Origin: Thermoplasmata archaeon
GTDB lineage: Archaea; Thermoplasmatota; Thermoplasmata; Lutacidiplasmatales; UBA184
Assembly: GCA_035502055.1 (NCBI GenBank)
Contig: DATJVB010000019.1
Location: forward strand, 1 to 55,704
DNA: 55,704 nucleotides
Direction: 5' to 3'
The translations under genes and the position numbers were made by a program. Below are positions 13,679-45,973 of the stretch, piece by piece (position 1 is the stretch's first letter; every line of letters starts with the position of its first letter). The notes under the pieces are model-generated. The model did no database searches and had not been told where the DNA came from. It worked only from the letters and a program-made list of their open reading frames with translations.

Positions 13679-13780
13679 CCCCGGACCGTGGCCGAGACAT
13701 GCCGTTATGGGCCTCCGGCGCACGGGCGGTCAGAGGCCCCCCGTCGGCGCGTCCGCGCGCCCCGAAGGGACGCCCCCGGG

Positions 13781-15817
13781 ATGTCACCGATGCACCGAGC
13801 CCCCCGCGCCGGCTGGCGGCGGGTCCGCGGCGTCGCTCCGGCCGCGACGGTGGGGGTGTCGGTGCTGACACTCGTCCTCCTGCTCCCGGGGGCGGCCCCG
13901 CGCGGGGTGCCCCCCGCCGGGCCCGGGGCGGTCGCCCCGTCGGAGCGGACGGTCGCCGCAGCCTGTTCGACGGTGAACTACACGAGCACCGTCGACGACT
14001 TCCTTCTCAGCTACGCCGAGTGCCTGCCGGACGCGTTCTCGAACTCGACCCCGCATCCGCTCGCCGTCCTCTTGCACGGCCTTTCGCTCACCGAGACGAC
14101 GCCGATGTCGGGAGGGTACCCCACGCCGTACAACTCGACGTACGTGACGCTGTTCGCGCAGGCCGGGTTCATCCTGCTCGTCCTCAACACCCGGACGGGA
14201 TCCGGCTTCTACGTGAACTCGCCGTTCACCGGACCGCAGGAGCAGGACGTCTGGGATGCGATCGCCTCCGAGGAGCGCCGTCACCCGGTGAGCGCGGTCG
14301 ACGTCTTCGGCAGCAGCATGGGCAGCATGGGGGCGTGGCTCCTCGCGGGCCACCATCCGGGGGCGATCCGGGCGATCGGCGCGGTGCTCAGCTTCTCGGA
14401 CTACTTCGAGGAGTACGCCTACGCGACCGCCGCCGGTCCGAACTCCGCCCCGCTCGCCGCCGACCTCCTCGCGTCGATCTCGGGCGGACGGCTGCCGAAC
14501 CAGTCCGCGCTCGCGGAGCGGCTGTGGGGCTACCTGTCGACGCCCCGCCTGGATCCCGAGAACTACAGCAACGTGACGATGTACGTGGTGCACGGCGGCG
14601 TCGACGAGGAGTCGCCGAACAACCTCTCCCTGTGGGGGTACCTGCAAGCGAACAATTCGCTCCTCAACACCACCTGCCTCGTCGCCTCGGCGATCGGCGA
14701 GCCCGCGAACTGCACCGACCCGATGCTCGATCTCGCCGCCCTCCATCCGGGCGAGTACCGGTTCCGGTACATCTTCGAGCCCGAAGGGATCCACACCGAC
14801 GACGAGCTCAACGTGAGCGACATGCTCGCCTTCTGGAAAGGCGAGGTCCCGACCGGAGTCTACTGGGCGACCCCCGGCGGACCGCCGACGGACCCGCCCC
14901 AGCCCGTCCTCGGCTTCGCGACGTCCCCGCGAGGGTGCGGCACGATCGCCGTCGATGGCGTCGCGCACGCTTACGGGGATCTCGTGACCCTCGCTCCCGG
15001 GGGGCACGCCGTATCGACGTCGCCGTGCCCGGGCCGGGTCCTCGCCAACCTCACCGCGGTCGGCGCGGCGACGATCGGCCCGGGCGCCACCTCGCTCTCG
15101 GTCGCGGGCACGGCGGTCCTCGTCGCCACGTTCGCTCTTCCCGCCGCGGCGAACGTGACCGTCTCGGTCGATCCGGCCGCGTGCGGTCCCGTGGACCTGG
15201 GAGGCGAGGCGTACCTCTCGGGGGCGACGGCGGCGATCCGCGCGGGGCTCTTCCCGCTTCTCGCGCTCCCGTGCCCCGGATACATGTTCTCGGGCTGGAC
15301 CACCGACGGGGCGGTCTCCGTCGACCAGCCGGCCGCCGAGAGCGCGACCCTCTCCGTCAACGGGTCGGGGTCGGTCGGCGCGACGTTCGCGCCCGAGCCG
15401 ACCGACGAACCCCTACCGGCGGCGACGGTCTCGATCGCCGTCGAGCCGGCGACGTGCGGACCGGCGGTCCGGCTCGACGGCCTCGCCTACGCGAACGGCT
15501 CGGCGGTCTCGCTCCCCACGGGCGCCCACGCGGTCGCGGCCGGGTCGTGCGAGGGCGAGGCGTTCGTCGAGTGGTCCGCGGACGGCGCGGTCTCCGTCGC
15601 CCGCGCCGACGCGACGTCGACGAACGCGACGGTCGACGGGAACGGCTCAATCCTCGCGTTGTACGCGCCCGCGACGCCGGGCCCCGGGGCCGCCGCGGCG
15701 ACGGCGCCGCCGATCGGGGTTTCGATCGGCGTGCTGGCGGCCGTCGGCGCCGGGGCCGCGGTGCTCGTCGGCGCGGCGGCGACGACCTCCCGACGGCGAC
15801 GTCCGAGACGACCGTAG
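13781..15817 (+). CDS. Secreted alpha/beta hydrolase (esterase/peptidase-like) with three Cys-pair beta modules and C-terminal TM anchor
   Basis: ATG 13781 gives signal peptide MSPMHRAPRAGWRRVRGVAPAATVGVSVLTLVLLLPGAAP. Nucleophile elbow FGSSMGSMG has Ser179 at 14315-14317. Candidate Asp (HGGVDEE) and His (PEGIHTDD). TM helix plus SRRRRPRRP tail. Confidence 0.8.
   Translation: MSPMHRAPRAGWRRVRGVAPAATVGVSVLTLVLLLPGAAPRGVPPAGPGAVAPSERTVAAACSTVNYTSTVDDFLLSYAECLPDAFSNSTPHPLAVLLHGLSLTETTPMSGGYPTPYNSTYVTLFAQAGFILLVLNTRTGSGFYVNSPFTGPQEQDVWDAIASEERRHPVSAVDVFGSSMGSMGAWLLAGHHPGAIRAIGAVLSFSDYFEEYAYATAAGPNSAPLAADLLASISGGRLPNQSALAERLWGYLSTPRLDPENYSNVTMYVVHGGVDEESPNNLSLWGYLQANNSLLNTTCLVASAIGEPANCTDPMLDLAALHPGEYRFRYIFEPEGIHTDDELNVSDMLAFWKGEVPTGVYWATPGGPPTDPPQPVLGFATSPRGCGTIAVDGVAHAYGDLVTLAPGGHAVSTSPCPGRVLANLTAVGAATIGPGATSLSVAGTAVLVATFALPAAANVTVSVDPAACGPVDLGGEAYLSGATAAIRAGLFPLLALPCPGYMFSGWTTDGAVSVDQPAAESATLSVNGSGSVGATFAPEPTDEPLPAATVSIAVEPATCGPAVRLDGLAYANGSAVSLPTGAHAVAAGSCEGEAFVEWSADGAVSVARADATSTNATVDGNGSILALYAPATPGPGAAAATAPPIGVSIGVLAAVGAGAAVLVGAAATTSRRRRPRRP
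14912..15667 (+). repeat. Three tandem 75-80-aa modules, each with two Cys (divergent InlB-B-repeat-like)
   Basis: CGTIAVDGVAHAYGD...SPCPG; ACGPVDLGGEAYLSG...LPCPGYMFSGWTTDG; TCGPAVRLDGLAYANG...GSCEGEAFVEWSADG. Confidence 0.65.
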
Positions 15818-16615: not shown

Positions 16616-18361
16616 TCACCAGCCGACCGGCTCGCCCGCGTTCTCCCGGTCGAGCCAGCGCTGAAGGGGCTCGAAGTACTCGAGGAGCGCGGCGGCGTCC
16701 ATCCGGCGCTCCCCCGTCGCCGCCTCGAGGGCGTCGGGCCACGGCTCCCGCTGGCCCATCGCGAGGAGACGGGAGAGCCGGTCCCCCGCCGCCGTCGACC
16801 CGAAGATCGATGCCGCGTGCAGGGGCCCGGTCGCGCCGGCCTCGCGCGCGAGCGCCCGGTGGAACTGGAACTGGAGGATGTGGGCGAGGAAGTACCGCAT
16901 GTACGGGACGTTCCCCGGGACGTGCGCCTTCGCGCCCGGATCGAACGCGGGGTCGGACCGGTCCCCGGGGGGCGCTACGCCCTGGTACTCCCGTCGGAGG
17001 GCCCACCACGAGGTGTTGAGCCGCTCGGCGGGGATCTCCCCGGAGAAGACGCGCCACCGCCACCGGTCGATCCCGAGGCCGAACGGGAGGAACGCGATCT
17101 TCTCGAGCGCCTGGACGAGGAGCGGACCGATCCCCGCATCGTCCTGCGCCGCGGCCGGATCGAGGAGGCCGACCCGGGCGAGGTACGCCGGGGTGACGGA
17201 CAGGGCGATCGTGTCGCCGATCGCCTCGTGGAAGCCGTCGTGGGCCCCGTCGCGGAAGAGGAACGGCAGCGGCGCGTACGCCCACTGGTAGTAGTTGTGG
17301 CCGAGCTCGTGGTGGATCACCCGGAGCTCCTCCCCCGTCGGGTCGATGCACATCTTGATCCGGAGGTCGTCGACGAAGTCGATGTCCCAGGCGCTCGCGT
17401 GGCAGACGACCTCCCGGTCCGGGGGACGGACGAACATCGACCGCTCCCAGAACGACGGCGGGAGGGGCCGCAGCCCGAGCGAGACGAAGAACCGTTCCGC
17501 GAGGCGGACCATCTCGGTCGGCCCGTACCCCTTCGCCCGCAGCGCGGCGGTGAGGTCCGGCGGGGCGGGGGCGTCCCGGGGCCCGACGAGGTCGATCACG
17601 TGCTCCCAGCTCTGGGCCCACAGGTTCCCGAGGAGGTGGGCCGGGATCGGGCCCCGCGGCGGGACCGTCGCCGCGCCGTACCGCTCGACGAGCCGCCGGC
17701 GGACGTACGCGTGCAGCGACCGGTAGAGCGGCCTCACCTGCTGCCACAGGCGCTCGACCTCCGCCTCGAACGCGTCGGGCGGCATGTCGTACCGCGCCCG
17801 CCACATCGCCCCCATGTCGGCGAAGCCGACCTCCCGGGCCCCCTGGTTGCCGAGCGCGACGTACCGGAGGAACTCGTCGCGCACGAGCCGGCCCGTCTCG
17901 TGCCAGCCGGTCCAGACGTCCTCGAGGAGCGCGGGATCGCGGCTCTCGACGAGGAGCTGCCCGAGCGCCTGCACGTCGAGCGCCGCGCTCCGGCCCTTCG
18001 GCGCGTAGCGGGCCTTCCCGTACTTCCCGCCCATCGACGCGACGACGCGCGTGAGCTCGGCGGCGAGCGCCGGGTCGGCGGGGGTCACGAGCGACAGCGA
18101 CCGGCGGAGGAGCTCGATCTTGCGGCGGTCCGCGGCGGTCGCCGGCCGGTCGGCGAGCCGCGCGGCCGCGCCCATCGCGTCGACGGTCGCGCGGATGAGC
18201 CGGGCCTGCGCCTGGGCCGACAGGATCTCGGTGTCGTCGGTGATGTGCGTCGCGGCGACCCAGTCGGCGCGCTGCGACTCGATCGACAGCTCGAGGAGCG
18301 CGGGCTCCACCGTGCCGAGGAGCGCCGCGATCGCGGGGTCGGAGGTCGTCGGCGAGGTCAT
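16616..18361 (-). CDS. Peptidyl-dipeptidase A (angiotensin-converting-enzyme-like, peptidase family M2)
   Basis: Trimmed to ATG 18359-18361, 581 aa. Motifs: HHELGHNYY (HEXXH at 17297-17311), HEAIGD, YMRYFLAHILQFQFH and ACE-like helices throughout. No signal peptide is visible. Confidence 0.9.
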   Translation of the reverse strand: MTSPTTSDPAIAALLGTVEPALLELSIESQRADWVAATHITDDTEILSAQAQARLIRATVDAMGAAARLADRPATAADRRKIELLRRSLSLVTPADPALAAELTRVVASMGGKYGKARYAPKGRSAALDVQALGQLLVESRDPALLEDVWTGWHETGRLVRDEFLRYVALGNQGAREVGFADMGAMWRARYDMPPDAFEAEVERLWQQVRPLYRSLHAYVRRRLVERYGAATVPPRGPIPAHLLGNLWAQSWEHVIDLVGPRDAPAPPDLTAALRAKGYGPTEMVRLAERFFVSLGLRPLPPSFWERSMFVRPPDREVVCHASAWDIDFVDDLRIKMCIDPTGEELRVIHHELGHNYYQWAYAPLPFLFRDGAHDGFHEAIGDTIALSVTPAYLARVGLLDPAAAQDDAGIGPLLVQALEKIAFLPFGLGIDRWRWRVFSGEIPAERLNTSWWALRREYQGVAPPGDRSDPAFDPGAKAHVPGNVPYMRYFLAHILQFQFHRALAREAGATGPLHAASIFGSTAAGDRLSRLLAMGQREPWPDALEAATGERRMDAAALLEYFEPLQRWLDRENAGEPVGW

Positions 18362-18382
18362 GCCCCGCGAGACGGACGGCGG

Positions 18383-18392
18383 GTTATCAAGG
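18383..18392 (-). promoter_or_regulatory. TATA-like island (CCTTGATAAC on minus strand), leaderless geometry for the M2 peptidase
   Basis: Centre lies 26 nt upstream of ATG 18361. Confidence 0.35.
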
Positions 18393-18469
18393 GACGGGGG
18401 TCGCGCCGGGCCCGCCGGTCCGCGGGCAAGGCGTTTTCCGTCCCGACGGTACGGTGGAGCGGTCGTCCG

Positions 18470-19066
18470 ATGCCGACGCGCGCCCCCTCCGTCCGACGCC
18501 CGCGGCGACGCGCCGTCGCCCGGGGCGAGTCCGCGCCGGCGGCGCGGCGGCCGCTCGGTTTCTACGGGTTCCACGTCCGGGACGTGATGACGCGCGACGT
18601 CGTCACCGTCGGCGCCGGCGAGTCGCTGCGCGTCGCCGCGCGCCGGATGGTCACCGCGCGGGTCTCGGGCCTCCCCGTGGTCGGGACGGGCGGACGCCTG
18701 GTCGGCGTCGTCTCGCAGAAGGACCTGTTCCGCCTCCTGAGCGCCCGCGCCGGGGGCGCCGTCCCGGCGGGCCTCCTGGAGGCGATCCTCAACGGCGGGG
18801 TCGACGCGCCCCCGCAGCTCACCGAGGCGGCCCGGCGGCTCGCGGACGCCCGGGTGCGCGATGCGATGAGCCGCCCGCCGATCTCGGTCCCCCCGACCGC
18901 CACCCTCGACGAGGCGATCGGGCTCCTGCTGTCGAGCCGGATCAACCGGCTCCCCGTCGTCCAGAACGGCCGCATCGTCGGGATCGTCACCCGGCACGAT
19001 CTGCTCGCGGGCGTCGGCCGGACCGCCGAGGACGCGGCCGGCGAGCGCGGCCGCGGCCCCGGGTAG
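18470..19066 (+). CDS. CBS-domain pair protein
   Basis: Real C-terminal part of a 749-aa shadow ORF. Two CBS motifs: VMTRDVVTV...GLPVV...GVVSQKDL and AMSRPPISV...NRLPVV...GIVTRHDL. The start could also be 18584 or 18587. Confidence 0.8.
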   Translation: MPTRAPSVRRPRRRAVARGESAPAARRPLGFYGFHVRDVMTRDVVTVGAGESLRVAARRMVTARVSGLPVVGTGGRLVGVVSQKDLFRLLSARAGGAVPAGLLEAILNGGVDAPPQLTEAARRLADARVRDAMSRPPISVPPTATLDEAIGLLLSSRINRLPVVQNGRIVGIVTRHDLLAGVGRTAEDAAGERGRGPG

Positions 19067-24581: not shown

Positions 24582-26765
24582 GTGCTCCGACCCGTCCGCC
24601 GGCCCCGCGTGGTGGGCCCCGCGCTGATCGCGATCGCCGTCCTCCTCACGCTGCCGACGGGACTCGCGACCGCCGGCGCGGGACCGGCCCCCGCGACGCC
24701 GCACCGGGGCGCCGGTGGCGGTCCGGCGAGCGGCGCCCCCGGCCCAGCCGCGGGCCCGACGGGCCCGGTCCTCGTCTCCCGCCCCGCGGTCCTCCCCGCG
24801 GGAGAGAGCCGGCCGCTCGCGAGCGCCGTCGACCCGTACTTCCGCTCCGGGGAGCCCGCACCGATGGGGATCGCCGACTACGGCATCAACGCGCAGGGGA
24901 TCGGCTACTCCTACTCGACACCGATCTTCCAGTCGTACGCCAACATCAGCCGCCTCCTCGCCTGGGCGCCGACGGACACGGAGGCGAACAGCGTCGTCAC
25001 GTTCCAGCTCAACGTCGTGGTGAAGCTCGTCCGCCCCGCCCCGTCGTCCGGGACGTACGCGTTCTGGATCCAGGACGTCGTCGACGTCGACACCGCGGCG
25101 AACGGCTACTACTTCCTCGACAACATCTGGAACCTGAGCGCCGGCACCGGTGCGATGGACAGCCACTCGGTCCAAGGGAAGGGGACGGTCTGCACGTACT
25201 CGTCGTGCGGCCTCTCGTGGTACTACTACACCGCGCCCACGAACACGCCGGGCGACGGGGCGGTCCGGAGCTACCCCACGGTCCTCGAGGAGCGGGTGCA
25301 GACCGGCCTCACGGCCGGGAACGTCCCGTACGTCGGGTTCGAGTACTTCGACCCCGGCGTGGGGTGGATCACGTACGACAACTGCACGTTCCCGTTCGCG
25401 AGCGGCTTCACCGACGCGGGGTTCACCGTCGACGGGAGCCAGTACACGCCGATCGGCGTGTTCTGGAACGCCGAGTGGGACTACACGGGGACGTCGGGGT
25501 CGTCGGCGCAGGTCGACCGGAACACGTCGATGCAGATGGGGCTCGAGTACTGGAACGGCCACGACTTCCAGGCGCTACCGGAGGCGTACGACTTCGGCGC
25601 GAACACGGCCGAGGTCATCCAGGGGGTCCACGTCGGGCTCTCGGACGGATCCGCGAACGGCTCGCTGACGGCGAACGTCTCGAACGGCAGCGGTGAGCTC
25701 GATGAGCTGTACACGAACTCCGACGTCGCCACGCTCCAGGTCTCGACGCCGGACACGGCGAGCGGCACGATCGCGATCGGAGGCGCGCCGCACCCGTACC
25801 TCGGGGGGTCGGCGACGTTCACGCTCGCCCCGGGGACGTACCCGGTCGTCCTCGAGGGCCCGGACGGCGTCGTCGACGCGACCAACGTGACGCTCGCCGC
25901 CGGCGGAACGACCGACCTCACCCTTCGGACCCCGCCGCCGCCCGCGCTGTACTCCGTCTCCGTCGTCTCCTCCGGCCTCCCGCCCGGGACGGCGTTCGGG
26001 CTCACGCTCGGCGGGAGCAGCTACTCGATCTCCGGGAACGGCTACGAGCTCCCCGACCGTCCGAACGGGACGTACGACTTCGCGATCACGCCGATCGCCG
26101 GCTACACGACGAGCGCGTACCGGGGCACCCTCACCGTCGACGGGGCGTCCGTCGAGCTGCGCGTCGCGTGGACCCAGGTCGTCTACCCCGTCACCTTCAC
26201 CGAGTCCGGTCTCCCCGACGGGACGGCCTGGTCGGTCGTCCTCGACGGGAGCTCGATCGTCGCCGACGGCCCGTCGGTCACCGTCTCCGAGGCGAACGGC
26301 TCGATCCCGTACGCGATCGACGTCGGGATCACGTACGAGGCGAACCCCGCGACCGGAACGGTCGCCGTCGACGGGGGCCCCGTCGGCGTGCCGCTGTCGT
26401 TCACGCTGCGCCCGGGATACATCACCGGTACCGTCGACCCGCCGAGCGCGACCGTCCTCCTGGACGGGCAGGCGGTGACCGTCGAGGACGGCGTGTTCAA
26501 CGTCTCCGTCGTCCCGGGAAGCTACACCCTCGAGGTGATCGGGACGGGGTTCGCGACCTCGTTCGAGAACGTCTCGGTGGGGCCCGGCGCGACGACGTCC
26601 GTCGCCCTCGACCTCACCCCCGCTCCCGGCGCGGGCGGCGGATCGCCCGCCGCCTCGTCCGGCCCGACGATCGGGTTCGTGGAGGCGCTCCTCGTCATCG
26701 GCGCGGCGGTCGCCGTGGCCGCGGGGCTCCTCGGCGTCGTCGCGTGGCGCCGGCGGGCCCGCTGA
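24582..26765 (+). CDS. Thermopsin-family (peptidase A5) protease with C-terminal beta modules and TM anchor
   Basis: 727 aa. Signal peptide; PMGIADYGI, FQLNVVV and FWIQDVVDV thermopsin-like core. Modules VVSSGLPPGTAFGLTLGG and FTESGLPDGTAWSVVLDG. A CarboxypepD_reg-like module, a TM helix and WRRRAR tail. Confidence 0.8.
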   Translation: MLRPVRRPRVVGPALIAIAVLLTLPTGLATAGAGPAPATPHRGAGGGPASGAPGPAAGPTGPVLVSRPAVLPAGESRPLASAVDPYFRSGEPAPMGIADYGINAQGIGYSYSTPIFQSYANISRLLAWAPTDTEANSVVTFQLNVVVKLVRPAPSSGTYAFWIQDVVDVDTAANGYYFLDNIWNLSAGTGAMDSHSVQGKGTVCTYSSCGLSWYYYTAPTNTPGDGAVRSYPTVLEERVQTGLTAGNVPYVGFEYFDPGVGWITYDNCTFPFASGFTDAGFTVDGSQYTPIGVFWNAEWDYTGTSGSSAQVDRNTSMQMGLEYWNGHDFQALPEAYDFGANTAEVIQGVHVGLSDGSANGSLTANVSNGSGELDELYTNSDVATLQVSTPDTASGTIAIGGAPHPYLGGSATFTLAPGTYPVVLEGPDGVVDATNVTLAAGGTTDLTLRTPPPPALYSVSVVSSGLPPGTAFGLTLGGSSYSISGNGYELPDRPNGTYDFAITPIAGYTTSAYRGTLTVDGASVELRVAWTQVVYPVTFTESGLPDGTAWSVVLDGSSIVADGPSVTVSEANGSIPYAIDVGITYEANPATGTVAVDGGPVGVPLSFTLRPGYITGTVDPPSATVLLDGQAVTVEDGVFNVSVVPGSYTLEVIGTGFATSFENVSVGPGATTSVALDLTPAPGAGGGSPAASSGPTIGFVEALLVIGAAVAVAAGLLGVVAWRRRAR

Positions 26766-28231: not shown

Positions 28232-29059
28232 CTACTTGCGCCCGCGCCGGCGGCGGCGGCCGCCCACCAGGCTCACCCATATAAAGATGGCCAGGACGAA
28301 CGCCGCCGCCCCGGCGATGTACCACGGCGTGTCGTCCGGCGGCGCCGGCTGGACGTAGAACGTCTGCGTGTAGACCTGCTGGCCGCCCGGGAAGCCGACG
28401 AGGCCGTGCTCGCCGGCGACGTTGATCGAGAACGCGTGCCAGCCGGGCGAAAGGTCCGTCGCCACGTACCGGAACGAGAGCGGGTAGCTCTGGCCCGGGG
28501 TGAGCGACGGCACCGCGATCGAGCCGACCGGCGACCCGTCCAGCGTCACCGTGAGCGCGAAGGCGCTCACCGACGCGCCGCTCCCGACGAGCAGCGTCGT
28601 CGACAGGACGAACGGCTCCACGATCTCGACGAGCAGCGAGACGTTCGTCGTCGCGTTGACGCCGTTCAGCGTCGAGTTGATGGTCACCGTGAGCGTCACC
28701 GGCTCGGTGATGTTCCCCGCGGACAGGGTGAGGTTGATCGAGCCGTTCACGAGGACGCCGGTCGACGCGGGGCCGAAGGCGAGCCCCGTCGTGTTGACGG
28801 CGTAGAAGCTCGCGGAGTAGGTGTAGGTCCCGACGACCGTCCCGTTGAGCGCCTCGGCCGGCCCGCCGGTCGCGCTGATCTCGTACGACCGCGACTGGAG
28901 GGTGCCGATCGTCGTCGGTCCGGCGATGTTCGCGCTGAGCGGCGGGTACTGGCCCGCGCCCCGGGCCGGGGCCGCGAGCGCCGCGAGGCCGGCGGTAGCG
29001 GCGAGGAGGACGAGGCCGAGCGCGACGGCGGCGCCCGGCGCGGACCGGCGGCTCCTCAT
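28232..29059 (-). CDS. Sequon-rich secreted protein with C-terminal TM anchor, translationally coupled to aglB
   Basis: ATG 29057-29059 overlaps the aglB TGA as ATGA. 275 aa. Signal peptide MRSRRSAPGAAVALGLVLLAATAGLAALAAPARGA. Eight N-x-S/T sequons in about 100 aa. TM helix plus GGRRRRRGRK. Confidence 0.75.
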   Translation of the reverse strand: MRSRRSAPGAAVALGLVLLAATAGLAALAAPARGAGQYPPLSANIAGPTTIGTLQSRSYEISATGGPAEALNGTVVGTYTYSASFYAVNTTGLAFGPASTGVLVNGSINLTLSAGNITEPVTLTVTINSTLNGVNATTNVSLLVEIVEPFVLSTTLLVGSGASVSAFALTVTLDGSPVGSIAVPSLTPGQSYPLSFRYVATDLSPGWHAFSINVAGEHGLVGFPGGQQVYTQTFYVQPAPPDDTPWYIAGAAAFVLAIFIWVSLVGGRRRRRGRK

Positions 29060-32000
29060 CGGCGGCTCCACCGGCGGGTCCGCCACCACCGGTAGACGAC
29101 GAGCCCCACGAGGAGCGCGAACGTCGGCGAGAACGCGAGCACCGGCACGAGCCAGTCGGGGTACGGGCTCGGCGCGCCGACGGACGGTCCGGTGACGGTG
29201 AGGCCGGTGCCGTTCCCGAGCGAGACCGAGAGGACCGGGACGGGCAGTTTGAGCGTCGTCCGGGCCGAGAGGGTGCCGTTCGAGCCGACGAGGGCGAGGT
29301 CGACCTCCCCCGGCGCGACGGCGTACGGCGTCGTCGCGTTGAGCTTCACGGAGAACGTCGTGTTCGACTGGGGCGCGAGCGACGGCGGCGCGGTCACGGC
29401 GCCGGACCCCTGGTCGATCTCGGCCGTCCAGCCGTCGGCGGCGAGCGCGATCGGGTTCTCGACGGTGATCGTCTCGCGGACCGCGACGTTGCCGAGGTTC
29501 GCGATCCAGAACGAGACCGTCCCGCTCTTCGGCGCCACGCTCGTCCCGGACGCGGAGACCCCCGCCGACATCGAGACGTACGGCTCCGTCGCGATCGTCC
29601 AGACGGTCGCCGGCCCCGCGGCGGTGCCGTTCGCGTACTCGGCGAGGAGGCTCGCCGCCGGCGGCGCGGCGAGGGTGCCGGCCGGCACCCGCACCGTCGC
29701 GTCGACGGTCACGGAGTCGTTGCCGGGAAGCACGCCGAGGGAGGCGTTCGCCGGCGTGAGCGTGAAGTTCCAGGTCGAGGGGCTGCCGAGGAACGAGACC
29801 GCCGCCGGGGCGTTCCCGACGTTCCGGGCCACGAAGATGCCGTTCACCGTCTGCCCGCCGGGCACGACGAACGGGCCCGGGGTCACGAGGGTGAGGACCA
29901 CGCGGGGGGAGAGGTCGAAGGCGAGCCCGAGGTGCGTCGCCGCGTTCCCGGCGGCGAGCACGACGCTCGTCGACGCCGTGGCGTTCGCGCTGACGCCGTA
30001 CGGGCTCCCCGTCGACCGGGCCGAGACCGTGTAGATCCCGACGGGCAGCGCGAGCGCGAGGGGAGCGCCGAAGGCGGCCCCGGCGATCGTGAGGTTCGCC
30101 CCGGAGGCGCTCGCGACGGTGAGCGTCGGCGCCGAGACCGCCGCGCTCGACTGGGGCCGGGCGATCGTGACGGTGTCGGTCCACGTCGGCACGAGGGTGA
30201 GGGCGAGCGCCGTCGGGGCCGTCGCCGACACCGTGACCCGCGTGAGGTTGGCGAGGTTCGCGAACCCGGTGCCGCCCGTCGCGTACACCGCGTACGAGCC
30301 CGGCGCGAGGGAGGCGCTGAACGCCCCCGACGGGGCGGCGACGGAGACCGTGGCCGTCGACGGGTACGGCCCGACGAGCTCGATCGAGGCGGCGGCGGGA
30401 CCGGGGTACGCCCGGGCGACGACGGTGCCGTTGAGCGTCGCGGTGAGGGCCGTTCCCTCGAGGGTGACCTGGCAACCGGAGACGGGATACGCCGCGAAGC
30501 AGGTCGCGCCGGCGCTGGCGACGAACACCTCGTAGCGGGCCGTCGAGCCCACGCCGACGAGCTGCGTCGTGTTGACGAGCACCGTGTACGTGGCGTTCGC
30601 CGGCACCTCCGCCGTGAAGTTGCCGCCCACCGCGGCGGCGGCGACGGTGACGCCGGGGGGCCCGGCGAGCGTGACGCCGACGGTCCCGTTCGGCGGTCCT
30701 CCGGTCGAGAGGGCCAGCGAGCCGTTCAGCTCCGCAGCGGCCGACGTGACGGCGACCGCGGGCTGGATCGCGCCCGTCGCGTTGATCGTGACGGTGGAGA
30801 GCCCCGTGTACGTCGTCCCCGCGGACGACCCGTTGCCGGCGGCGACGCCCCGGGCGAAGGCCGTGTACGTCCCCGGCGGGGCGAAGAAGCCGGTCGTGAA
30901 GGTGTCCCCGCCGACGGTGAGATTCGCGGTGGCCGAGGAGAGCGAGAGGGCGACCGACGCGTTGAGGAGCCCCGTCGGCAGGACGAGCCCCCCGGCCGAG
31001 TCGACCTCGTGCCGGACCGTGAGGGTGAACGTCTCGCCCGCGGATCCGATGCCGATCGTCGCGTTGATCGGCGACGTCGGCCGAAGGAGGCCCGGGGCCA
31101 CGGGCGACGGGCCCCACGCCGTCACGGAGTACGTCCCGGGCGCGACGGAGAACGAGAACGTGGGACCGCCCGTCGCGTTCACCGTCGACGCCGTCGCGCT
31201 CTCGGCGGTGAAGTTGACGGTGACCTTCGACCCGCCGGGCAGCCCGAAGACGGTGAGGTTCACGGGGACCGGTGTGAGGCGGAGCGGGATCGTCGTCGCG
31301 GCCGTCAGGTCCGACGGGGTGAGCCCGCACGCGGCGTACGGCTCGAACCCCTCGGCCGCCACGGAGAGGCAGTACGAGGTGCCGGTCGGCACCGTCGCCG
31401 GGACCGTGAACGAGACGTTCCCGGCGCCGGTTGAGAGGGCGGCGACCGACCACCCCGTCGAGAGCCCGAGGCGGACTTCGGCGCGGGCGGCCGGGAAGAA
31501 CCCCGGCCCGTTGGTGTACGTCGGCGTGCCGACCTCCGCCGAGACCACCACCGACGGGCCGACCGGGAGATCGACGGTCGTCGGATAGACGAGGGTCACG
31601 TTCTTCGCCGCGGAGAGGACCGGCGCCGTCGCGTCCGTCGTGCTCGTCGGTTGGATCGCGAGGAGGCTGTACGTGCCCTGGGGCAGGTAGAGCGCCCAGT
31701 CGCCGGAGGCGTTCGCCACCGCGATCACGGACGCCCCGCGCGTGTCGTAGGCGGTGACCTTGGTCGGCGTCGTCGCCGAGGAGCTGCCGGCGGTCCCGTT
31801 CAGGCGGACGGCGGGGGCGAGGGAGAGGGGCGCGAGCTCGAGCGCGCCGACGCCGCTCGGGAGGTACGCCGACGAGAACCCGGCCTCGAGCGTCGTCCCG
31901 ACGAGCCCGAGCGCGTACAGGGAGTAGTTGCCCGTCGGGACCGTCGCCGAGACGAACCCGAAGGCGTTCGACGTGAAGACCGTCGAGTTCTGGGGGGAGA

Positions 32001-32982
32001 GCGGCGGGGCGGCGCCGATCGGCGCCGTCGACCCGTTGCCGGTCCCGGAGGAGCCGTTCCCCGCCGCGGCCGAGGCGATCGGGGTGAACCGGACGGGGAT
32101 CCCGGCGACCGGCTCGTCGTTCGCGAGGACCGCGACCTCGACCGTCGTCACCGGGACCGCGGTGAGGTTGACGACGGTCCGGGTGCCGGCGGTGGTGATC
32201 GAGAATGGGACCGCGACGGTCCCCCAGCCCATCGACGCCTCGGCGGCCCGGACGGAGTAGTTCCCCGGTCCAAGGTTCGGGATCGCGTACTCCCCGCTCT
32301 CGTTCGTGACCGCGGTGCCGACGACGCCGGTCGGCCCGCTCACGGTCACCGTGGCCCCCTGCGCGCCGAACCCGCCCTGCGGGATGAACACCTTCCCCGA
32401 GAGCGACGCGGGCGTGAGACCCGTCGTCGCGTTCTGCGTCGCCCCGGTGGAGAGCGTGAGCATCGGCTCGGTGAAGTTGGCGCCCTGGTAGCGCACCGAC
32501 ATGTTGTACACGCCGGGGGCGAGGCCGGTGACCGAGAACGCGCCGCTCGCGTCGGTCGGGACGGTGCGGGCGCCGCCGGGGCCCCCCCACAGGACGACCG
32601 ACGCGCCCGGGACGACCGAGTCGGTCCCCGCGATGTACGACGAGTTGTTCGCGTTGTTCCAGTAGAGGAAGCCGCTCACGGTCGCCGGCGCGAGGACGAT
32701 CGGCCGGACCAGGGCCGGGCTCTCCGGGTTGAGGCCCTGCGACGCCGCGATCGGGAGGTGGAGCGACACGAGCGTCGTCCCGCCCGACTCCGTGAGCGGG
32801 TTGAACGAGCCGGTGGTGACGTTGACCGTGTCGTTCCCGGGCGGGAGGACGACGGAGTACACCCCGTGGGCGTCGGTCTGGGCGATCATGTGGGGGATCC
32901 CCCAGCCGTCGTACACGGTCACGAGGGCGCCCGCGACGGGCGCCCCGCCGGGGAGCGTCACCGTCCCCGTCATCGTCTGGCC
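29056..32982 (-). repeat. Array of carboxypeptidase-regulatory/Ig-like beta-sandwich modules forming the AglB C-terminal extension
   Basis: Recurrent pattern GTVxxxxGxPVAGAxVTV...TDAxGxYSxxLxPGxY. About 40 N-x-S/T sequons by hand count. Boundaries are approximate. Confidence 0.6.
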
Positions 32983-35718
32983 CGCGTAGTACTCGAGGAT
33001 CGTCTCGCCGCCGCCGCCGTTGACCCCGTAGTACGCCGACGGGTCCGCGGTCACGGTGCCGTTCTGCGCTTTCGCGAGGGCCTGGGCGTCGACCAAGTTC
33101 TTCGCGACGTAGCAGTTCGGATGGCTCGCCGGGTCCGCGTAGGGGCAGTAGTACGCCGTCCGGTAGACCACCTGGAAGTGCTCGAGCATCCAGCCCGGCT
33201 CCGGCAGGTTGGACGCGATCGAGTTCCCGACGAAGGTGGTGAGTCCGGGGATGCCGTCGCCCTGGCCGATATCCGAGCCGTTGTACCCCGCGAAGATGTG
33301 GTAGATCATCGAGTTATAGAACGCGGGATAGTACTGGATGTTGTAGTTCGTCGCGAGGACCCCGGGCGGAACGCTCCCGAGGGGGTACGTCGAGCCGTCG
33401 GAGCCCGTCACGGTGACGCTGTAGTACGACGTCGGGACGCCGCCCGAGCCGATGACCCGGTCCGTGAGGTCGGCGGGAGCGTAGAAGATCCCGGTCGACG
33501 AGCCCGCGACGGGGAAGAGGCGGCTGTCGACCATCGCGTAGCGGATCGACCAGCCCGTGTACGATTGGACGTCGTCGTACACCTGCGCGACGCCCGAGAT
33601 CGGGAGGGTGGAGGCGAGGAAGTACGACGTCGCGTCGTACAGCGCGTTGGTGGCGTCCAGGTGGCTCGCATCGACGGCGAGGTACCGGTCGGGGTGGCCG
33701 ATGACGAGGGGGATGTCGTTCGACGCGTTGACGAGGAGGTTGTTGAGCTGGCCCACGTCGACGTGGTCCCGGACGAGCACCTGGGCGAGCCCGCTCGGGA
33801 GGTAGTGGCTCCCGGTCTCGGTGAGCTCGGCGGTCAACAGCCGGGTCGTGAGGATGCCGATCGCCAGCGACTCGTTCTGGGCGAGGAGGAAGTTCCCCGC
33901 CGGGTCGATCCCGTTCTGGAAGTTGTCCGCGACCGTCGGATGGTCCCCCTGGGCGACGGCCTGGAACCCGTAGTCCCACCAGCTCACGAACGCGGGTCGA
34001 TCGGGCGGCGGCAGGTTCTGGTCCTGCCCGGCGAGCCAATTGTAGCCGTCCTCGTCGTACTGGTTCGGCGTGTCGAGCTGCGTCCCCGCCGCCCCGAGAT
34101 AGAACGTCGACGCCGACGCCGGATTGGTCCGAAGGGGCGGGGGGAGCGTGTTGTACACCTGGAGGTTCGCGTTCGACTTCTCGTTGTACGGGATCCCCGC
34201 ATCGATGGCGTACCAGACGTTCGGGAGGACGACGATGAGGAGGAGGAGCATCACGAGCACGTGCCGGATCTTGAACGCGCGCCGGAAGGCGGCCCACTGG
34301 GAGCGCCGGTCGGCGAGCGAGGCGACGTTCCGCCGGAGGGTCGAGTAGCCGCCGACGTCGATCGCCCGGACGATCGCCTCCCCGGCGAGGAGCGAGAACG
34401 CGGCGGAGCCGAGGAAGAAGAACTTCGCGGCCGAGACCGGGAGGTACACCGACACCACCGCGAAGACGAGGAAGAGGAGGCTCGTCCGCCGGAAGCGGGT
34501 GCGCGTCGTCTGCCACGTGTACAGCGCGAGCCCGACGAACGCGAGGAAGAACGTGACGACCCCGTAGCCGAGGATCAGCTGGTCGATCGACGGGGCCTGC
34601 GCCTCGGCGACGGTCGAGTAGACGAGGGTCTTGACGAAGTACCCCTGGCCCGTGACGAGGGTGATGAACGAGGCCGGGGCGATGAGGTACAGGATCCCGC
34701 TCGCGGCCCCCCCGATCGCGGCGAGCACCGGGAGCGAGACGACCCACGGGTAGTCCCGCAGGAACAGGAACGGGGTGACGACCAGGAGGGCGCCGAAGTA
34801 GAGGAGGAGGGGGATGTCGAACCACCCCGCGAACAGCCCCTGCCGGAGGTAGTACGGCATCGCCATCGGGAACCCGACGAGCCCGACGATCCACACCGCG
34901 ACGTAGAGGCCGAACGAGTCGACGCGCCGGATCCGCTCGATGACGAGCGCGACGGCGAGGAAGATGACGATCGTCGCGACGACGAAGGTGTACCCTTGCC
35001 ACGCGAGGGCGAGCGTGCCGAACGAGACGCCGGCGAAGACGGCCCACTTGACGGCGGTCCGTTCGGTCCGAAGGAACCCCTTGAGGCCGGCGACGATCGA
35101 CCGGGGGCTCCGGTAGCTCTCGACCCACCGGTGGGAGCCGACCGCCTTGAACGTCCGGAGGAGACTGTAGACGGTGAGCAGGATGAAGAACGTGTAGAAC
35201 GCGAGGTAGTTCGCGTACCCGAAGGTCGACGAGTCGATGTTCGCGACCATGAGCGGGTAGAGGAACGCCGCGACGATCCCCATCCGCCGGGAGCTCGCCT
35301 CGCGGCCGATGAGGTAGACCGGGAACACCCCGAGCCCGGCCCAGATCGGCCCCCCGGCGTCGAGGAACCAGGCGCCGGCGGTCACCGCGTTCCCGCCGAA
35401 CAGCGGCGCGAACAGGATGCCGAGGACCGCGTTCATCCAGTCGAACAGCGGCTCCCTCGGGTTCACCGCCCCGATCGGGTAGTTGAGGAGCGTGTCCCGG
35501 CCGAGGTTGTGGTGGTTGAGGATGATGTACTCCATCACCCGGGAGTGGTAGAACGAGTCGGAGCCGCCGCCGTAGACGTTGAACGGGCCCCACAGCTCGA
35601 CGACCTGGGCCATGAAGACGGTCCGGATGAGGATCGCCACGCTGAACGCCGTGACGAGGAGCGCCGCCGTGACGCCGTGGCGGCGCCACCAACCTACCGT
35701 CGGAGCTTCGGGCGGCAT
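29056..35718 (-). CDS. aglB: Archaeal oligosaccharyltransferase AglB (STT3 family), giant 2,220-aa form
   Basis: Single uninterrupted ORF. Multi-TM N-terminus with GGSDSFYHSR (aa 51-60) and STVAE (aa 368-372). WWDYG at aa 580-584 (nt 33967-33981), then DNFQNG. The C-terminal roughly 1,300 aa are repetitive beta modules ending in a TM helix. Confidence 0.9.
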   Translation of the reverse strand: MPPEAPTVGWWRRHGVTAALLVTAFSVAILIRTVFMAQVVELWGPFNVYGGGSDSFYHSRVMEYIILNHHNLGRDTLLNYPIGAVNPREPLFDWMNAVLGILFAPLFGGNAVTAGAWFLDAGGPIWAGLGVFPVYLIGREASSRRMGIVAAFLYPLMVANIDSSTFGYANYLAFYTFFILLTVYSLLRTFKAVGSHRWVESYRSPRSIVAGLKGFLRTERTAVKWAVFAGVSFGTLALAWQGYTFVVATIVIFLAVALVIERIRRVDSFGLYVAVWIVGLVGFPMAMPYYLRQGLFAGWFDIPLLLYFGALLVVTPFLFLRDYPWVVSLPVLAAIGGAASGILYLIAPASFITLVTGQGYFVKTLVYSTVAEAQAPSIDQLILGYGVVTFFLAFVGLALYTWQTTRTRFRRTSLLFLVFAVVSVYLPVSAAKFFFLGSAAFSLLAGEAIVRAIDVGGYSTLRRNVASLADRRSQWAAFRRAFKIRHVLVMLLLLIVVLPNVWYAIDAGIPYNEKSNANLQVYNTLPPPLRTNPASASTFYLGAAGTQLDTPNQYDEDGYNWLAGQDQNLPPPDRPAFVSWWDYGFQAVAQGDHPTVADNFQNGIDPAGNFLLAQNESLAIGILTTRLLTAELTETGSHYLPSGLAQVLVRDHVDVGQLNNLLVNASNDIPLVIGHPDRYLAVDASHLDATNALYDATSYFLASTLPISGVAQVYDDVQSYTGWSIRYAMVDSRLFPVAGSSTGIFYAPADLTDRVIGSGGVPTSYYSVTVTGSDGSTYPLGSVPPGVLATNYNIQYYPAFYNSMIYHIFAGYNGSDIGQGDGIPGLTTFVGNSIASNLPEPGWMLEHFQVVYRTAYYCPYADPASHPNCYVAKNLVDAQALAKAQNGTVTADPSAYYGVNGGGGETILEYYAGQTMTGTVTLPGGAPVAGALVTVYDGWGIPHMIAQTDAHGVYSVVLPPGNDTVNVTTGSFNPLTESGGTTLVSLHLPIAASQGLNPESPALVRPIVLAPATVSGFLYWNNANNSSYIAGTDSVVPGASVVLWGGPGGARTVPTDASGAFSVTGLAPGVYNMSVRYQGANFTEPMLTLSTGATQNATTGLTPASLSGKVFIPQGGFGAQGATVTVSGPTGVVGTAVTNESGEYAIPNLGPGNYSVRAAEASMGWGTVAVPFSITTAGTRTVVNLTAVPVTTVEVAVLANDEPVAGIPVRFTPIASAAAGNGSSGTGNGSTAPIGAAPPLSPQNSTVFTSNAFGFVSATVPTGNYSLYALGLVGTTLEAGFSSAYLPSGVGALELAPLSLAPAVRLNGTAGSSSATTPTKVTAYDTRGASVIAVANASGDWALYLPQGTYSLLAIQPTSTTDATAPVLSAAKNVTLVYPTTVDLPVGPSVVVSAEVGTPTYTNGPGFFPAARAEVRLGLSTGWSVAALSTGAGNVSFTVPATVPTGTSYCLSVAAEGFEPYAACGLTPSDLTAATTIPLRLTPVPVNLTVFGLPGGSKVTVNFTAESATASTVNATGGPTFSFSVAPGTYSVTAWGPSPVAPGLLRPTSPINATIGIGSAGETFTLTVRHEVDSAGGLVLPTGLLNASVALSLSSATANLTVGGDTFTTGFFAPPGTYTAFARGVAAGNGSSAGTTYTGLSTVTINATGAIQPAVAVTSAAAELNGSLALSTGGPPNGTVGVTLAGPPGVTVAAAAVGGNFTAEVPANATYTVLVNTTQLVGVGSTARYEVFVASAGATCFAAYPVSGCQVTLEGTALTATLNGTVVARAYPGPAAASIELVGPYPSTATVSVAAPSGAFSASLAPGSYAVYATGGTGFANLANLTRVTVSATAPTALALTLVPTWTDTVTIARPQSSAAVSAPTLTVASASGANLTIAGAAFGAPLALALPVGIYTVSARSTGSPYGVSANATASTSVVLAAGNAATHLGLAFDLSPRVVLTLVTPGPFVVPGGQTVNGIFVARNVGNAPAAVSFLGSPSTWNFTLTPANASLGVLPGNDSVTVDATVRVPAGTLAAPPAASLLAEYANGTAAGPATVWTIATEPYVSMSAGVSASGTSVAPKSGTVSFWIANLGNVAVRETITVENPIALAADGWTAEIDQGSGAVTAPPSLAPQSNTTFSVKLNATTPYAVAPGEVDLALVGSNGTLSARTTLKLPVPVLSVSLGNGTGLTVTGPSVGAPSPYPDWLVPVLAFSPTFALLVGLVVYRWWRTRRWSRR

Positions 35719-35760: not shown

Positions 35761-35779
35761 GTATAAATAGCCTTATACC
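35761..35779 (-). promoter_or_regulatory. AT-rich promoter island with TATA box (GGTATAAGGCTATTTATAC on minus strand) upstream of aglB
   Basis: Most AT-rich 19-mer near aglB. TATTTATAC is centred about 47 nt upstream of ATG 35718, implying a roughly 20-nt leader. Confidence 0.5.
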
Positions 35780-44620: not shown

Positions 44621-45973
44621 GTGTGGCTCGGGATCGACGACACCGACAGCCCCGCGGGCGGCTGCACGACGTTCACCCTCCTCTCGGTCCTGGAGGCCGC
44701 CCAGGCGGCCGGGTTCGATCCGATCGGGGACCCCCGGCTCGTCCGGCTCGACCCGAACGTGCCGATGAAGACGCGCGGGAACGCGGCGCTCGCGGCGCGG
44801 TTCGGCCGGGGCCGGGGCCGGCGACGGCGGATCGGCTCGACCCCGACCGGACCGATCTGGTCGTTCCCGCGCGGCGACCCCCTCCCGGCGACGGATCGGG
44901 AGCGACTCGTCGACGTCGCGTGGACGACGGTCCTCCGGACCGCCCGGGTCGGCGATCCGGGGACGGATCCCGTCCTCGTCGCGATGCCCCGGCGCCCTGC
45001 CGGCTCGCTGTACCGGGAGGCCGTCTCCCGGCTCGTCGACACGGTCCCCGTCGTGCGCGAGGTGGAGCGGCTCGGGGGGACGATCCGCCACACCGGCCCC
45101 CTCGGCGGGGCCGTCGGCGCCGCGGCGGCGCTCGCCTGGCCCGGCCGACGGGCGACGTGGGAGCTCATCGCGTACCGGCGTCCGAGCGCCTGGGGGCGGC
45201 CCCGGCGCGTCTCCGCGCGCGCGGTCCGGTCCGCGGAGCGACGGTTCCCGGAATTGTTCGCGTGCTTCGACCCCGACACGCGCCGGCTGCTCGTCGCACC
45301 GCACACCCCGTGCCCGATCCTGTTCGGTCTGCGGGCGACGCGCCCGGGCCGGCTGCCGAAGATCGCGGCGCGCGTCGGCTCGGAGCCTGTCGACCGGTGG
45401 GTCGTCTTCCGGACGAACCAGGGGACCGGGGATCACCTCGTGCCGCGCGCGATCCCGGAGCTCCGGCCGTTCGATGCGGCGCGGCTTCGGGGGCGGATCG
45501 ATGGGACCCCCATCCGCCTGCCGGGCGGGCACGTCCGGTTCCCGCTCCGGGGGCCCGACGGGGCGACCATCGACTGCCTCGCCTTCGAGCCGACGAAGAC
45601 GCTACCCCGGATCGTCTCCACGCTGGTGCGGGGAGACCGCGTCGAACTGTGGGGGGGACGCGGGGCCGACGCGGCGTTTCGGCTCGAAGGGGTCCGCCTC
45701 CTCGCGCTCGCCCCCTCGTCCGGGCCGCCGCGGCCCCCCCGATGCCCGGGGTGCGGCTCGCGGACCCGGTCGCTCGGCCGGGGGCGCGGCTTCCGGTGCG
45801 CCGCGTGCCGGCGGCGGCTGCCGCTCGAGGCGGGCCTCCCCACGCCGCGGGCCCGACCGCCGTCGGGGACCCACCAGCCGACCCTCTCGGCGCGCCGGCA
45901 TCTCGCCCCGGTCGCGCGCGGCCCGGCCCCGACGCACCTTCCCCTCCCCCGAGCCCCGGGTAGGGGAAACTGA
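44621..45973 (+). CDS. tiaS: tRNA(Ile2) 2-agmatinylcytidine synthetase TiaS
   Basis: GTG start, 450 aa. N-terminus MWLGIDDTDSPAGGCTTF, OB-like middle region and C-terminal Zn ribbon CPGCGSRTRSLGRGRGFRCAAC. Confidence 0.85.
   Translation: MWLGIDDTDSPAGGCTTFTLLSVLEAAQAAGFDPIGDPRLVRLDPNVPMKTRGNAALAARFGRGRGRRRRIGSTPTGPIWSFPRGDPLPATDRERLVDVAWTTVLRTARVGDPGTDPVLVAMPRRPAGSLYREAVSRLVDTVPVVREVERLGGTIRHTGPLGGAVGAAAALAWPGRRATWELIAYRRPSAWGRPRRVSARAVRSAERRFPELFACFDPDTRRLLVAPHTPCPILFGLRATRPGRLPKIAARVGSEPVDRWVVFRTNQGTGDHLVPRAIPELRPFDAARLRGRIDGTPIRLPGGHVRFPLRGPDGATIDCLAFEPTKTLPRIVSTLVRGDRVELWGGRGADAAFRLEGVRLLALAPSSGPPRPPRCPGCGSRTRSLGRGRGFRCAACRRRLPLEAGLPTPRARPPSGTHQPTLSARRHLAPVARGPAPTHLPLPRAPGRGN

Follow-up and report, generated by a model that had tools for sequence, protein, structure and literature searches.

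A giant AglB of Thermoplasmata type: an STT3 core continuous with a sequon-dense beta-sandwich array and a predicted second membrane anchor

We describe a giant form of AglB, the single near-universal enzyme of archaeal N-glycosylation, encoded on the minus strand (29056-35718) of contig DATJVB010000019.1. The window—the whole 55,704-nucleotide stretch that was analysed—belongs to a soil archaeon of the Thermoplasmata that has high-GC DNA and is a relative of Lutacidiplasmatales, and the giant AglB form is typical of that class. One polypeptide comprises a 13-transmembrane (TM)-type STT3 core, a globular domain with the WWDYG motif, about 13 beta-sandwich domains, a linker, a 14th TM helix (TM14), and a Trp/Arg-rich tail; to our knowledge, all structural and biochemical models of AglB rest on enzymes of about 600-1,050 amino acids (aa). 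The reading that we favour, with a probability of roughly 0.55, is that the ectodomain of this protein forms a glycosylated arch, fixed in the membrane by each of its ends and part of the coat, and that its enzyme is active with a remodelled metal site.

The gene is a single continuous open reading frame (ORF) of 2,220 aa plus stop, with an ATG start. The window has a GC content of about 74%, which yields many long spurious ORFs, and codon-position composition was examined for that reason. GC content at third codon positions (GC3) lies between 0.92 and 1.00 in each of 22 consecutive 100-codon bins, and GC1 equals or exceeds GC2 in most bins, the two being near-equal within the Ala/Thr/Gly-rich array; the uniformly high GC3 indicates one coding frame without a hidden frameshift. 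Colinear ORFs are present in about 60 other metagenome-assembled genomes (MAGs). They were found by scanning a single genome for each GTDB species, which gave 80 loci; almost all of these are labelled as MAGs of Thermoplasmata, Candidatus Lutacidiplasma silvani among them. In the approximately 60 loci uncut by contig ends, the frame, extended stop-to-stop through each locus, is one uninterrupted ORF of about 2,190-2,430 aa (mostly 2,190-2,270) with a near-identical C-terminus, ...YRWWRTRRW(T/S)RR; short-read assemblies account for many of them.

Three long-read loci (L001-L003), from the ENA long contigs ERZ25039587 and ERZ25039507, have the AglB gene broken into three to five ORFs. Aligned by tblastn, the window protein is colinear with all three from about aa 4 to 2220, and the frame-switch positions differ from locus to locus, which marks them as indel errors. 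Genuine gene splits were considered and rejected, given the end-to-end colinearity, the locus-specific switch positions, and the intact ORF in short-read MAGs. The frame-shifting indels of these contigs, clearest in L002 and L003, fragment many genes, among them Iso_dh, aconitase, and POR as well as AglB; protein lengths taken from error-prone long-read contigs (e.g., P0003, P0010, and P0011) are correspondingly misleading.

The N-terminal 912 residues are a divergent yet unmistakable AglB, a view that follows from family and profile comparison. A profile of 13 relatives matches Archaeoglobus fulgidus AglB-L (AfAglB-L; 3waj, 5gmy) with an E-value of 4.5e-33, aa 5-618 aligning with residues 4-596, and it also matches eukaryotic STT3A and STT3B, yeast Stt3, and PglB. 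AfAglB-L came within reach only by this family profile; with a single sequence as query, phmmer reached nothing in the PDB beyond the small C-terminal domains of AglB-S (3vu0 and 3vgp) around WWDYG. Matches to curated families are modest: Pfam STT3 (PF02516) covers aa 52-440 with 26.8 bits, just above its cut-off of 24.5, and the AglB_core-like family covers aa 569-623 with 22.1 bits, below its 27-bit cut-off. The best NCBIfam match, TIGR04154 (archaeo_STT3), spans aa 19-751 with 195.3 bits against a cut-off of 450, so that the protein falls outside this archaeosortase-A-associated STT3 subfamily.

The core begins with a multi-TM STT3 domain that extends to about aa 505 (34204..35718, minus strand) and is supported by the Pfam match, the AfAglB-L profile alignment, and hydrophobic segments; a catalytic globular domain, predicted to be extracellular, follows (aa 506-912; 32983..34203, minus strand). 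External loop 1 (EL1) holds GGSDSFYH at aa 51-58, in which the first DXD-type motif, G-G-S-D54 (35557..35568, minus strand), aligns with G-N-D47 of AfAglB; GGSDS recurs in 188 of the 200 family sequences. The TIXE motif of external loop 5 (EL5) is T-V-A-E372 (aa 369-372; 34603..34614, minus strand), aligned with TIAE360 of AfAglB—across the 200 family sequences it reads TVAE in 187, TIAE in 11, and TISE in two, with the Glu invariant. WWDYG, at aa 580-584 (nucleotides 33967-33981), is found in all 200, and the globular domain that includes it matches 3vu0 and 3vgp. DNFQNG follows at aa 598-603; the position of the DGGK motif, which together with DK/MI makes up the Ser/Thr pocket, is taken by A-D598-N-F-Q, resembling the NNFQ of AglB-S. 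A DK or MI motif could not be clearly placed in the window AglB from sequence alone.

The catalytic metal of AfAglB is held by D47 of the first DXD motif and by D161 and H163 of the second, while E360 of TIXE acts via waters (PMC8342417; PMC7226087). In the window protein the alignment puts N170-Y171-L172 (35203..35211, minus strand) at the second DXD position, replacing both of these second-motif ligands, and external loop 2 (EL2) accordingly has no metal-binding DXD, DXH, or DXE there. The replacement is a property of the clade: over 200 family sequences the column reads NYL in 185 and D-Y-Q/L in four, a distant giant clade keeps D-H-D, and a Ferroplasma sp. protein has another variant. In the literature searched, this loss of the second DXD to NYL is previously unreported. 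In 98-99% of the NYL clade an acidic residue occupies two other positions, E89 in EL1 and D379 shortly behind TVAE in EL5; the DHD clade (10 sequences) has non-acidic residues at both. These residues are clade-specific acidic gains and may belong to a compensatory remodelling of the active site, and we infer that the metal site has been remodelled rather than decayed.

At about aa 913 the protein passes into an array of about 13 beta-sandwich domains (aa 913-2160; 29239..32982, minus strand), recognised by Pfam matches, AlphaFold2 (AF2) models, and sequon statistics; the number is a count of strand patterns in the models. Two models were built from 26-sequence alignments: one of aa 900-1560, with a predicted local distance difference test (pLDDT) score of 82.9, and one of aa 1541-2220, with a score of 85.3. 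Both are all-beta, the second with a terminal helix at its end. Pfam cut-offs are passed only in the first array modules (D1-D3), by CarboxypepD_reg and related families: CarboxypepD_reg (PF13620) scores 73.1 bits over three stretches, the best at aa 915-978, and CarbopepD_reg_2 (PF13715) scores 42.1 bits over two, the best at aa 1106-1181. The remaining Pfam families in the array are single or sub-threshold matches, and the window AglB matches no S-layer Pfam family. A Gly/Ser-rich loop at aa 1216-1243 is disordered.

The array is followed by a low-confidence linker (aa 2161-2189; 29152..29238, minus strand; pLDDT about 48-61 in model m0cab406c9ae0) and by the predicted TM14 (aa 2190-2209; 29092..29151, minus strand), which has a Kyte-Doolittle value of 2.32 and coincides with AF2 helices at model residues 650-655 and 657-674, together aa 2190-2214. 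The chain ends in the tail RWWRTRRWSRR (29059..29091, minus strand), predicted to be cytoplasmic and near-identical in the approximately 60 orthologues. No NCBIfam CTERM model matched the window AglB at E <= 0.1, and the archaeosortase-type signals PGF (as in PGF-CTERM), PEF, and VPXXXP are absent from its C-terminus, where there is a plain TM helix with a W/R tail. Conserved Trp/Arg motifs are found at both predicted cytoplasmic ends of the protein: GWWRRHG(W) at aa 7-14 (35677-35700, minus strand) and YRWWRTRRW within aa 2209-2220 (29059-29094, minus strand); the tails of the other surface proteins in the window are, unlike these, plain poly-Arg.

The array is old and fixed rather than recently amplified, as indicated by divergent domains and the lack of large-scale tandem repeats in the DNA. 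Pairwise likeness among the domains is only 25-38%, with one to five sequons per domain, and Tandem Repeats Finder reported only three two-copy arrays of 24-27 nucleotides; recent repeat expansion was rejected on these grounds. Array length is 1,248-1,280 aa in all 26 full-length relatives compared. Measured against the window protein, they have a mean identity of 0.67 over the TM core, 0.65 over the globular domain, 0.64 over the C-terminal anchor, and 0.42 over the array. Foldseek searches of both models against the PDB returned generic multi-domain beta-sandwich proteins only, including Bacillus anthracis TIE (6fwv, the top match, E 2e-11), Gram-positive pilins, the Sulfolobus SlaB stalk (8qox_B, E 1.9e-8, TM-scores 0.13 and 0.17), alpha-2-macroglobulin, complement, and integrins. 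The 13-relative profile also matches NOMO2 (9c7v_B; E 4.4e-21) over about 350 residues; this match reflects a shared and widespread CarboxypepD_reg/transthyretin-like fold, and no orthology is implied.

What distinguishes the array in composition is its density of N-x-S/T sequons. There are 43 in aa 913-2180 (1,268 aa), or 3.4 per 100 aa, where composition-preserving shuffles give 12.2 +/- 3.0 (z = 10.1), and 73% of the Asn residues of the array lie within a sequon. The arrays of the relatives hold 33-47 sequons (26 sequences), and 24 sequon columns are common to at least 60% of these sequences even though mean array identity is 42%. The array is almost certainly a glycoprotein.

Three other predicted surface proteins of the window share the enrichment, with densities of 1.65-2.9 sequons per 100 aa where the array has 3.4; the cytoplasmic proteins of the window show no such enrichment. 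They are a 709-aa protein with 17 sequons (13688-15817, plus strand; z 8.4), a 727-aa thermopsin with 12 (24582-26765, plus strand; z 4.4), and the 275-aa protein encoded downstream of AglB with eight (28232-29059, minus strand; z 5.0); all three end in a TM helix and an Arg-rich tail. The first of these, C-terminally anchored and sequon-enriched, has an InlB-B-repeat-like domain, and the second, anchored and enriched in the same way, is a thermopsin-family acid protease with a PEGA domain. A sequon-rich ectodomain followed by a TM helix and Arg tail is the general surface-protein design of this organism. The array thus looks like an ordinary surface-glycoprotein module joined to the enzyme, with an oligosaccharyltransferase (OST) in the place of a signal peptide; since unrelated surface proteins of the window are similarly enriched and anchored, the array is not demonstrably a dedicated substrate.

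The giant architecture is, on present sequence comparisons, class-wide in Thermoplasmata. Run exhaustively with the core as query over 1.84 billion representatives of 50%-identity clusters, phmmer found 283 matches at E <= 1e-30; 88 of the 134 newly returned representatives have at least 2,000 aa (the longest 2,775 aa), and 86 of these 88 end in a hydrophobic segment with a basic tail. A search with the array by itself returned 214 protein clusters, of which the best 120 are nearly all 2,180-2,230 aa and include no stand-alone array homologue; a stand-alone array as donor of the fusion was therefore rejected within those best 120 clusters. Divergent giant forms occur in other Thermoplasmata lineages, such as loci L078 (2,167 aa) and L083 (2,179 aa), and shorter complete forms of about 1,100-1,250 aa with few beta domains also exist. 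The RefSeq protein WP_309214711.1 (Ferroplasma sp.), a member of one of the long clusters, has 2,056 aa and 70 sequons. It aligns colinearly with the window protein, at 27% identity, over the core, over much of the array as far as about aa 1352, and again in the array near aa 1750; this homologue comes from a MAG. Ferroplasma also has cultured species. Hundreds of public sequences share this architecture and length, and automatic annotation calls them, for example, 'carboxypeptidase regulatory-like domain-containing protein' or 'STT3 domain-containing protein'; AglBs of giant size or with two anchors are not described in the literature searched, which included the Lutacidiplasmatales genome paper.

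These results confirm what the initial annotation had seen in the sequence: a single uninterrupted 2,220-aa minus-strand ORF, STT3/AglB hallmarks where it had placed them, an array of carboxypeptidase-regulatory/Ig-like modules from about aa 913 (CarboxypepD_reg begins at aa 915), some 40 sequons by hand count against the 43 counted here, and a C-terminal TM helix with RWWRTRRWSRR. The fusion is genuine, neither chimeric nor frameshifted, with some 60 assemblies in agreement, and far longer than structurally characterised AglBs. Its interpretation fared less well. The giant form had been taken as unusual, a view to be refuted by many archaeal AglBs with equally long arrays; within Thermoplasmatota such proteins abound, in about 60 species-level MAGs, the 88 long representatives, and the Ferroplasma sp. 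protein. The proposal that the array is the enzyme's own acceptor is not supported, given three unrelated surface proteins that are comparably enriched and have the same TM-plus-Arg anchor, and an S-layer fusion is not borne out by Foldseek, which found only generic Ig/CnaB/macroglobulin-type arrays with SlaB as one match among many.

With the topology of AglB, in which the N-terminus is inside and the C-terminal domain outside, approximately aa 506-2189 would be extracellular; TM14 would then bring the chain back to the cytoplasm and put the Trp/Arg tail at the inner face. An extracellular stretch with a cytoplasmic tail would turn the array into a densely N-glycosylated arch, anchored in the membrane on either side, with a contour of about 45-50 nm if each domain contributes about 3.5-4 nm. 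The arch is most likely a structural part of the glycoprotein coat, linking the enzyme to it, and AglB itself, acting in cis or in trans, would glycosylate the sequons of the arch. Activity has most likely been retained, with N170 and L172 in place of the second-DXD ligands and E89 and D379 as acidic gains of the clade. Several points weigh against this reading: the second DXD binds the catalytic metal in AfAglB and is missing here, so that activity is not guaranteed; the structural role in the coat is argued from analogy and conservation patterns, with generic Foldseek matches; and the chain could be cleaved between core and array.

A bolder form of the favoured reading, which we hold only tentatively and consider on balance doubtful, makes the OST itself a principal envelope protein. 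Many Thermoplasmata have no cell wall, and a self-glycosylated, fixed-length arch of 13 domains might build or space the glycocalyx, the enzyme working without the second DXD in the Lutacidiplasmatales-type clade. If so, the enzyme and a major product of it would be one molecule.

The array could instead be an accessory module in cis that holds nascent substrates, glycans, or partners, with TM14 docked on the STT3 bundle, much as the single-pass subunits of eukaryotic OST carry luminal domains or as the NOMO rod stands at the ER translocon. We regard this as possible but rather unlikely. The identity of the C-terminal helix and tail (0.64, against 0.42 for the array) and the profile match to NOMO2 are what such a module would lead one to expect, and a number of domains that does not vary across the clade points to a set geometry; peripheral beta units of AglB-L, moreover, are already known (bioRxiv 10.1101/2020.08.18.256065), and the first array module weakly aligns with one. 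The NOMO likeness, however, is confined to the level of a widespread CarboxypepD_reg/transthyretin-like fold, and no binding site or conserved surface was identified in the array.

That the STT3 core is a pseudo-enzyme, serving mainly as a 13-TM anchor for the glycoprotein array while another STT3 paralogue performs N-glycosylation, seems unlikely. The substitution of N170-Y-L172 for D-x-H/D ligands in 185 of 200 sequences, at residues that coordinate metal in AfAglB, speaks for it, as does a TIGR04154 score far under the cut-off. D54, E372, and WWDYG are nevertheless kept (the first in 188 of 200, the other two in every sequence), conservation within the protein is highest in the TM core, sister clades of equally giant build retain DHD, and the acidic gains in EL1 and EL5 suggest remodelling, not decay. 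The strong sequon enrichment of the organism's surface proteins implies an active OST, and the six-frame translation of the window contains no second WWD[YWF]G that might belong to a paralogue.

We judge it unlikely that the protein is a precursor, cleaved near aa 890-912 into an AglB of normal size and a separate, C-terminally anchored surface glycoprotein. The array does match the stand-alone surface proteins of the organism in all but the signal peptide, and a junction at about aa 889-912 (AQNGT...GGGGETIL...) lies ahead of the beta-sandwich domain that opens the array at aa 913-915; but more than 200 relatives include neither a stand-alone array homologue nor a split gene, which would be unexpected for halves that work independently, and no protease motif was recognised. 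The least credible alternative, that the long ORF is an artefact of chimeric assembly, missed frameshift, or spurious high-GC coding, could appeal to the 74% GC and to the three long-read loci with broken genes, but it is already refuted by a GC3 of at least 0.92 throughout with a codon-position pattern of coding type, by about 60 independent assemblies with one ORF each of the same length and C-terminus, and by splits that differ in site among contigs in which housekeeping genes are fragmented too.

The surroundings of the gene are not those of a glycosylation locus. The gene order—isopropylmalate dehydrogenase (IPMDH), thiolase, DUF35/ChsH2, AglB, the 275-aa surface protein, aEF-1beta, YdjM, and thermopsin—is kept in relatives; leucine/lysine-type biosynthesis genes are among the neighbours, the flanks are housekeeping genes, and no glycosylation gene cluster was found among the neighbours. 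An AT-rich island, GGTATAAGGCTATTTATAC (35761..35779, minus strand), conspicuous against a background of about 74% GC, lies about 45 nucleotides upstream of the AglB ATG and is a probable archaeal TATA box that would give AglB its own promoter. Downstream, the ATG of the gene for the 275-aa protein (28232..29059, minus strand) overlaps the AglB stop (ATGA), and in L001 this gene follows AglB with the identical four-nucleotide overlap; the two genes are probably co-transcribed and translationally coupled. The 275-aa protein has a signal peptide, its eight sequons, and a C-terminal TM helix with RRRRRGRK; the match of its CARDB-like beta-sandwich to CARDB is weak (20.9 bits against a cut-off of 22.7). 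The protein may act with AglB as a partner subunit.

Two further genes of the window deserve mention. At 44621-45973 (plus strand) lies TiaS (tRNA-Ile2 agmatidine synthetase), an archaeal marker consistent with Thermoplasmata, and the synteny from TiaS to AglB is kept in L001 and L002. At 16616-18997 (minus strand) a 793-aa protein has a full-length match to Peptidase_M2, the angiotensin-converting-enzyme family (E 1e-202), which is unexpected in an archaeal fragment.

The giant AglB is thus a well-defined variant found across the class, and one that could in principle be tested in cultured Thermoplasmatales. A whole class, including acid-soil Lutacidiplasmatales-type lineages and Ferroplasma, appears to use a doubly anchored AglB of 2,000-2,800 aa, while existing models are based on smaller enzymes. 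The architecture physically joins the glycosylation enzyme to a module of surface-glycoprotein type, and does so in organisms with an envelope that relies on glycoproteins. The NYL clade, without the second DXD yet with the first DXD Asp, the TIXE Glu, and WWDYG conserved, offers a natural test of the metal-coordination model.

Among known systems, the closest is AfAglB-L (3waj/5gmy/7e9s). The profile alignment is consistent with a common fold of the STT3 TM domain, and the two proteins share the Asp of the first DXD, the Glu of TIXE, and WWDYG; each also continues beyond its C-terminal globular domain into one or more beta-sandwich 'peripheral' units. AfAglB-L has 875 residues in the PDB, one such unit, and no C-terminal TM helix, whereas the window AglB carries some 13 units with 43 sequons and ends in a 14th TM helix with a conserved W/R tail; at the second DXD, D161-H-H163 of AfAglB-L contrasts with N-Y-L. 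Peripheral beta units of long AglBs are described as being of unknown function (bioRxiv 10.1101/2020.08.18.256065). The last beta unit of AfAglB-L weakly aligns with the first array module, and on that basis the array looks like an extreme elaboration of such units.

More distant comparisons concern the array itself. NOMO, a eukaryotic subunit of the BOS complex (9c7v), and TIE (6fwv) are, like the array, rods of CarboxypepD_reg/Ig-like beta-sandwich domains, and NOMO ends in a single C-terminal TM anchor; both stand alone, however, and are not fused to an enzyme. Archaeal surface or S-layer glycoproteins with a C-terminal anchor, such as the SlaB stalk (8qox_B), and the window's own surface proteins have sequon-dense beta-sandwich ectodomains resembling the array, and in them, as in AglB, a C-terminal TM helix is followed by a basic tail. 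The array differs from SlaB-type surface glycoproteins in having no coiled-coil stalk; and where those proteins and the surface proteins of the window begin with a signal peptide, the window AglB begins with a complete OST.

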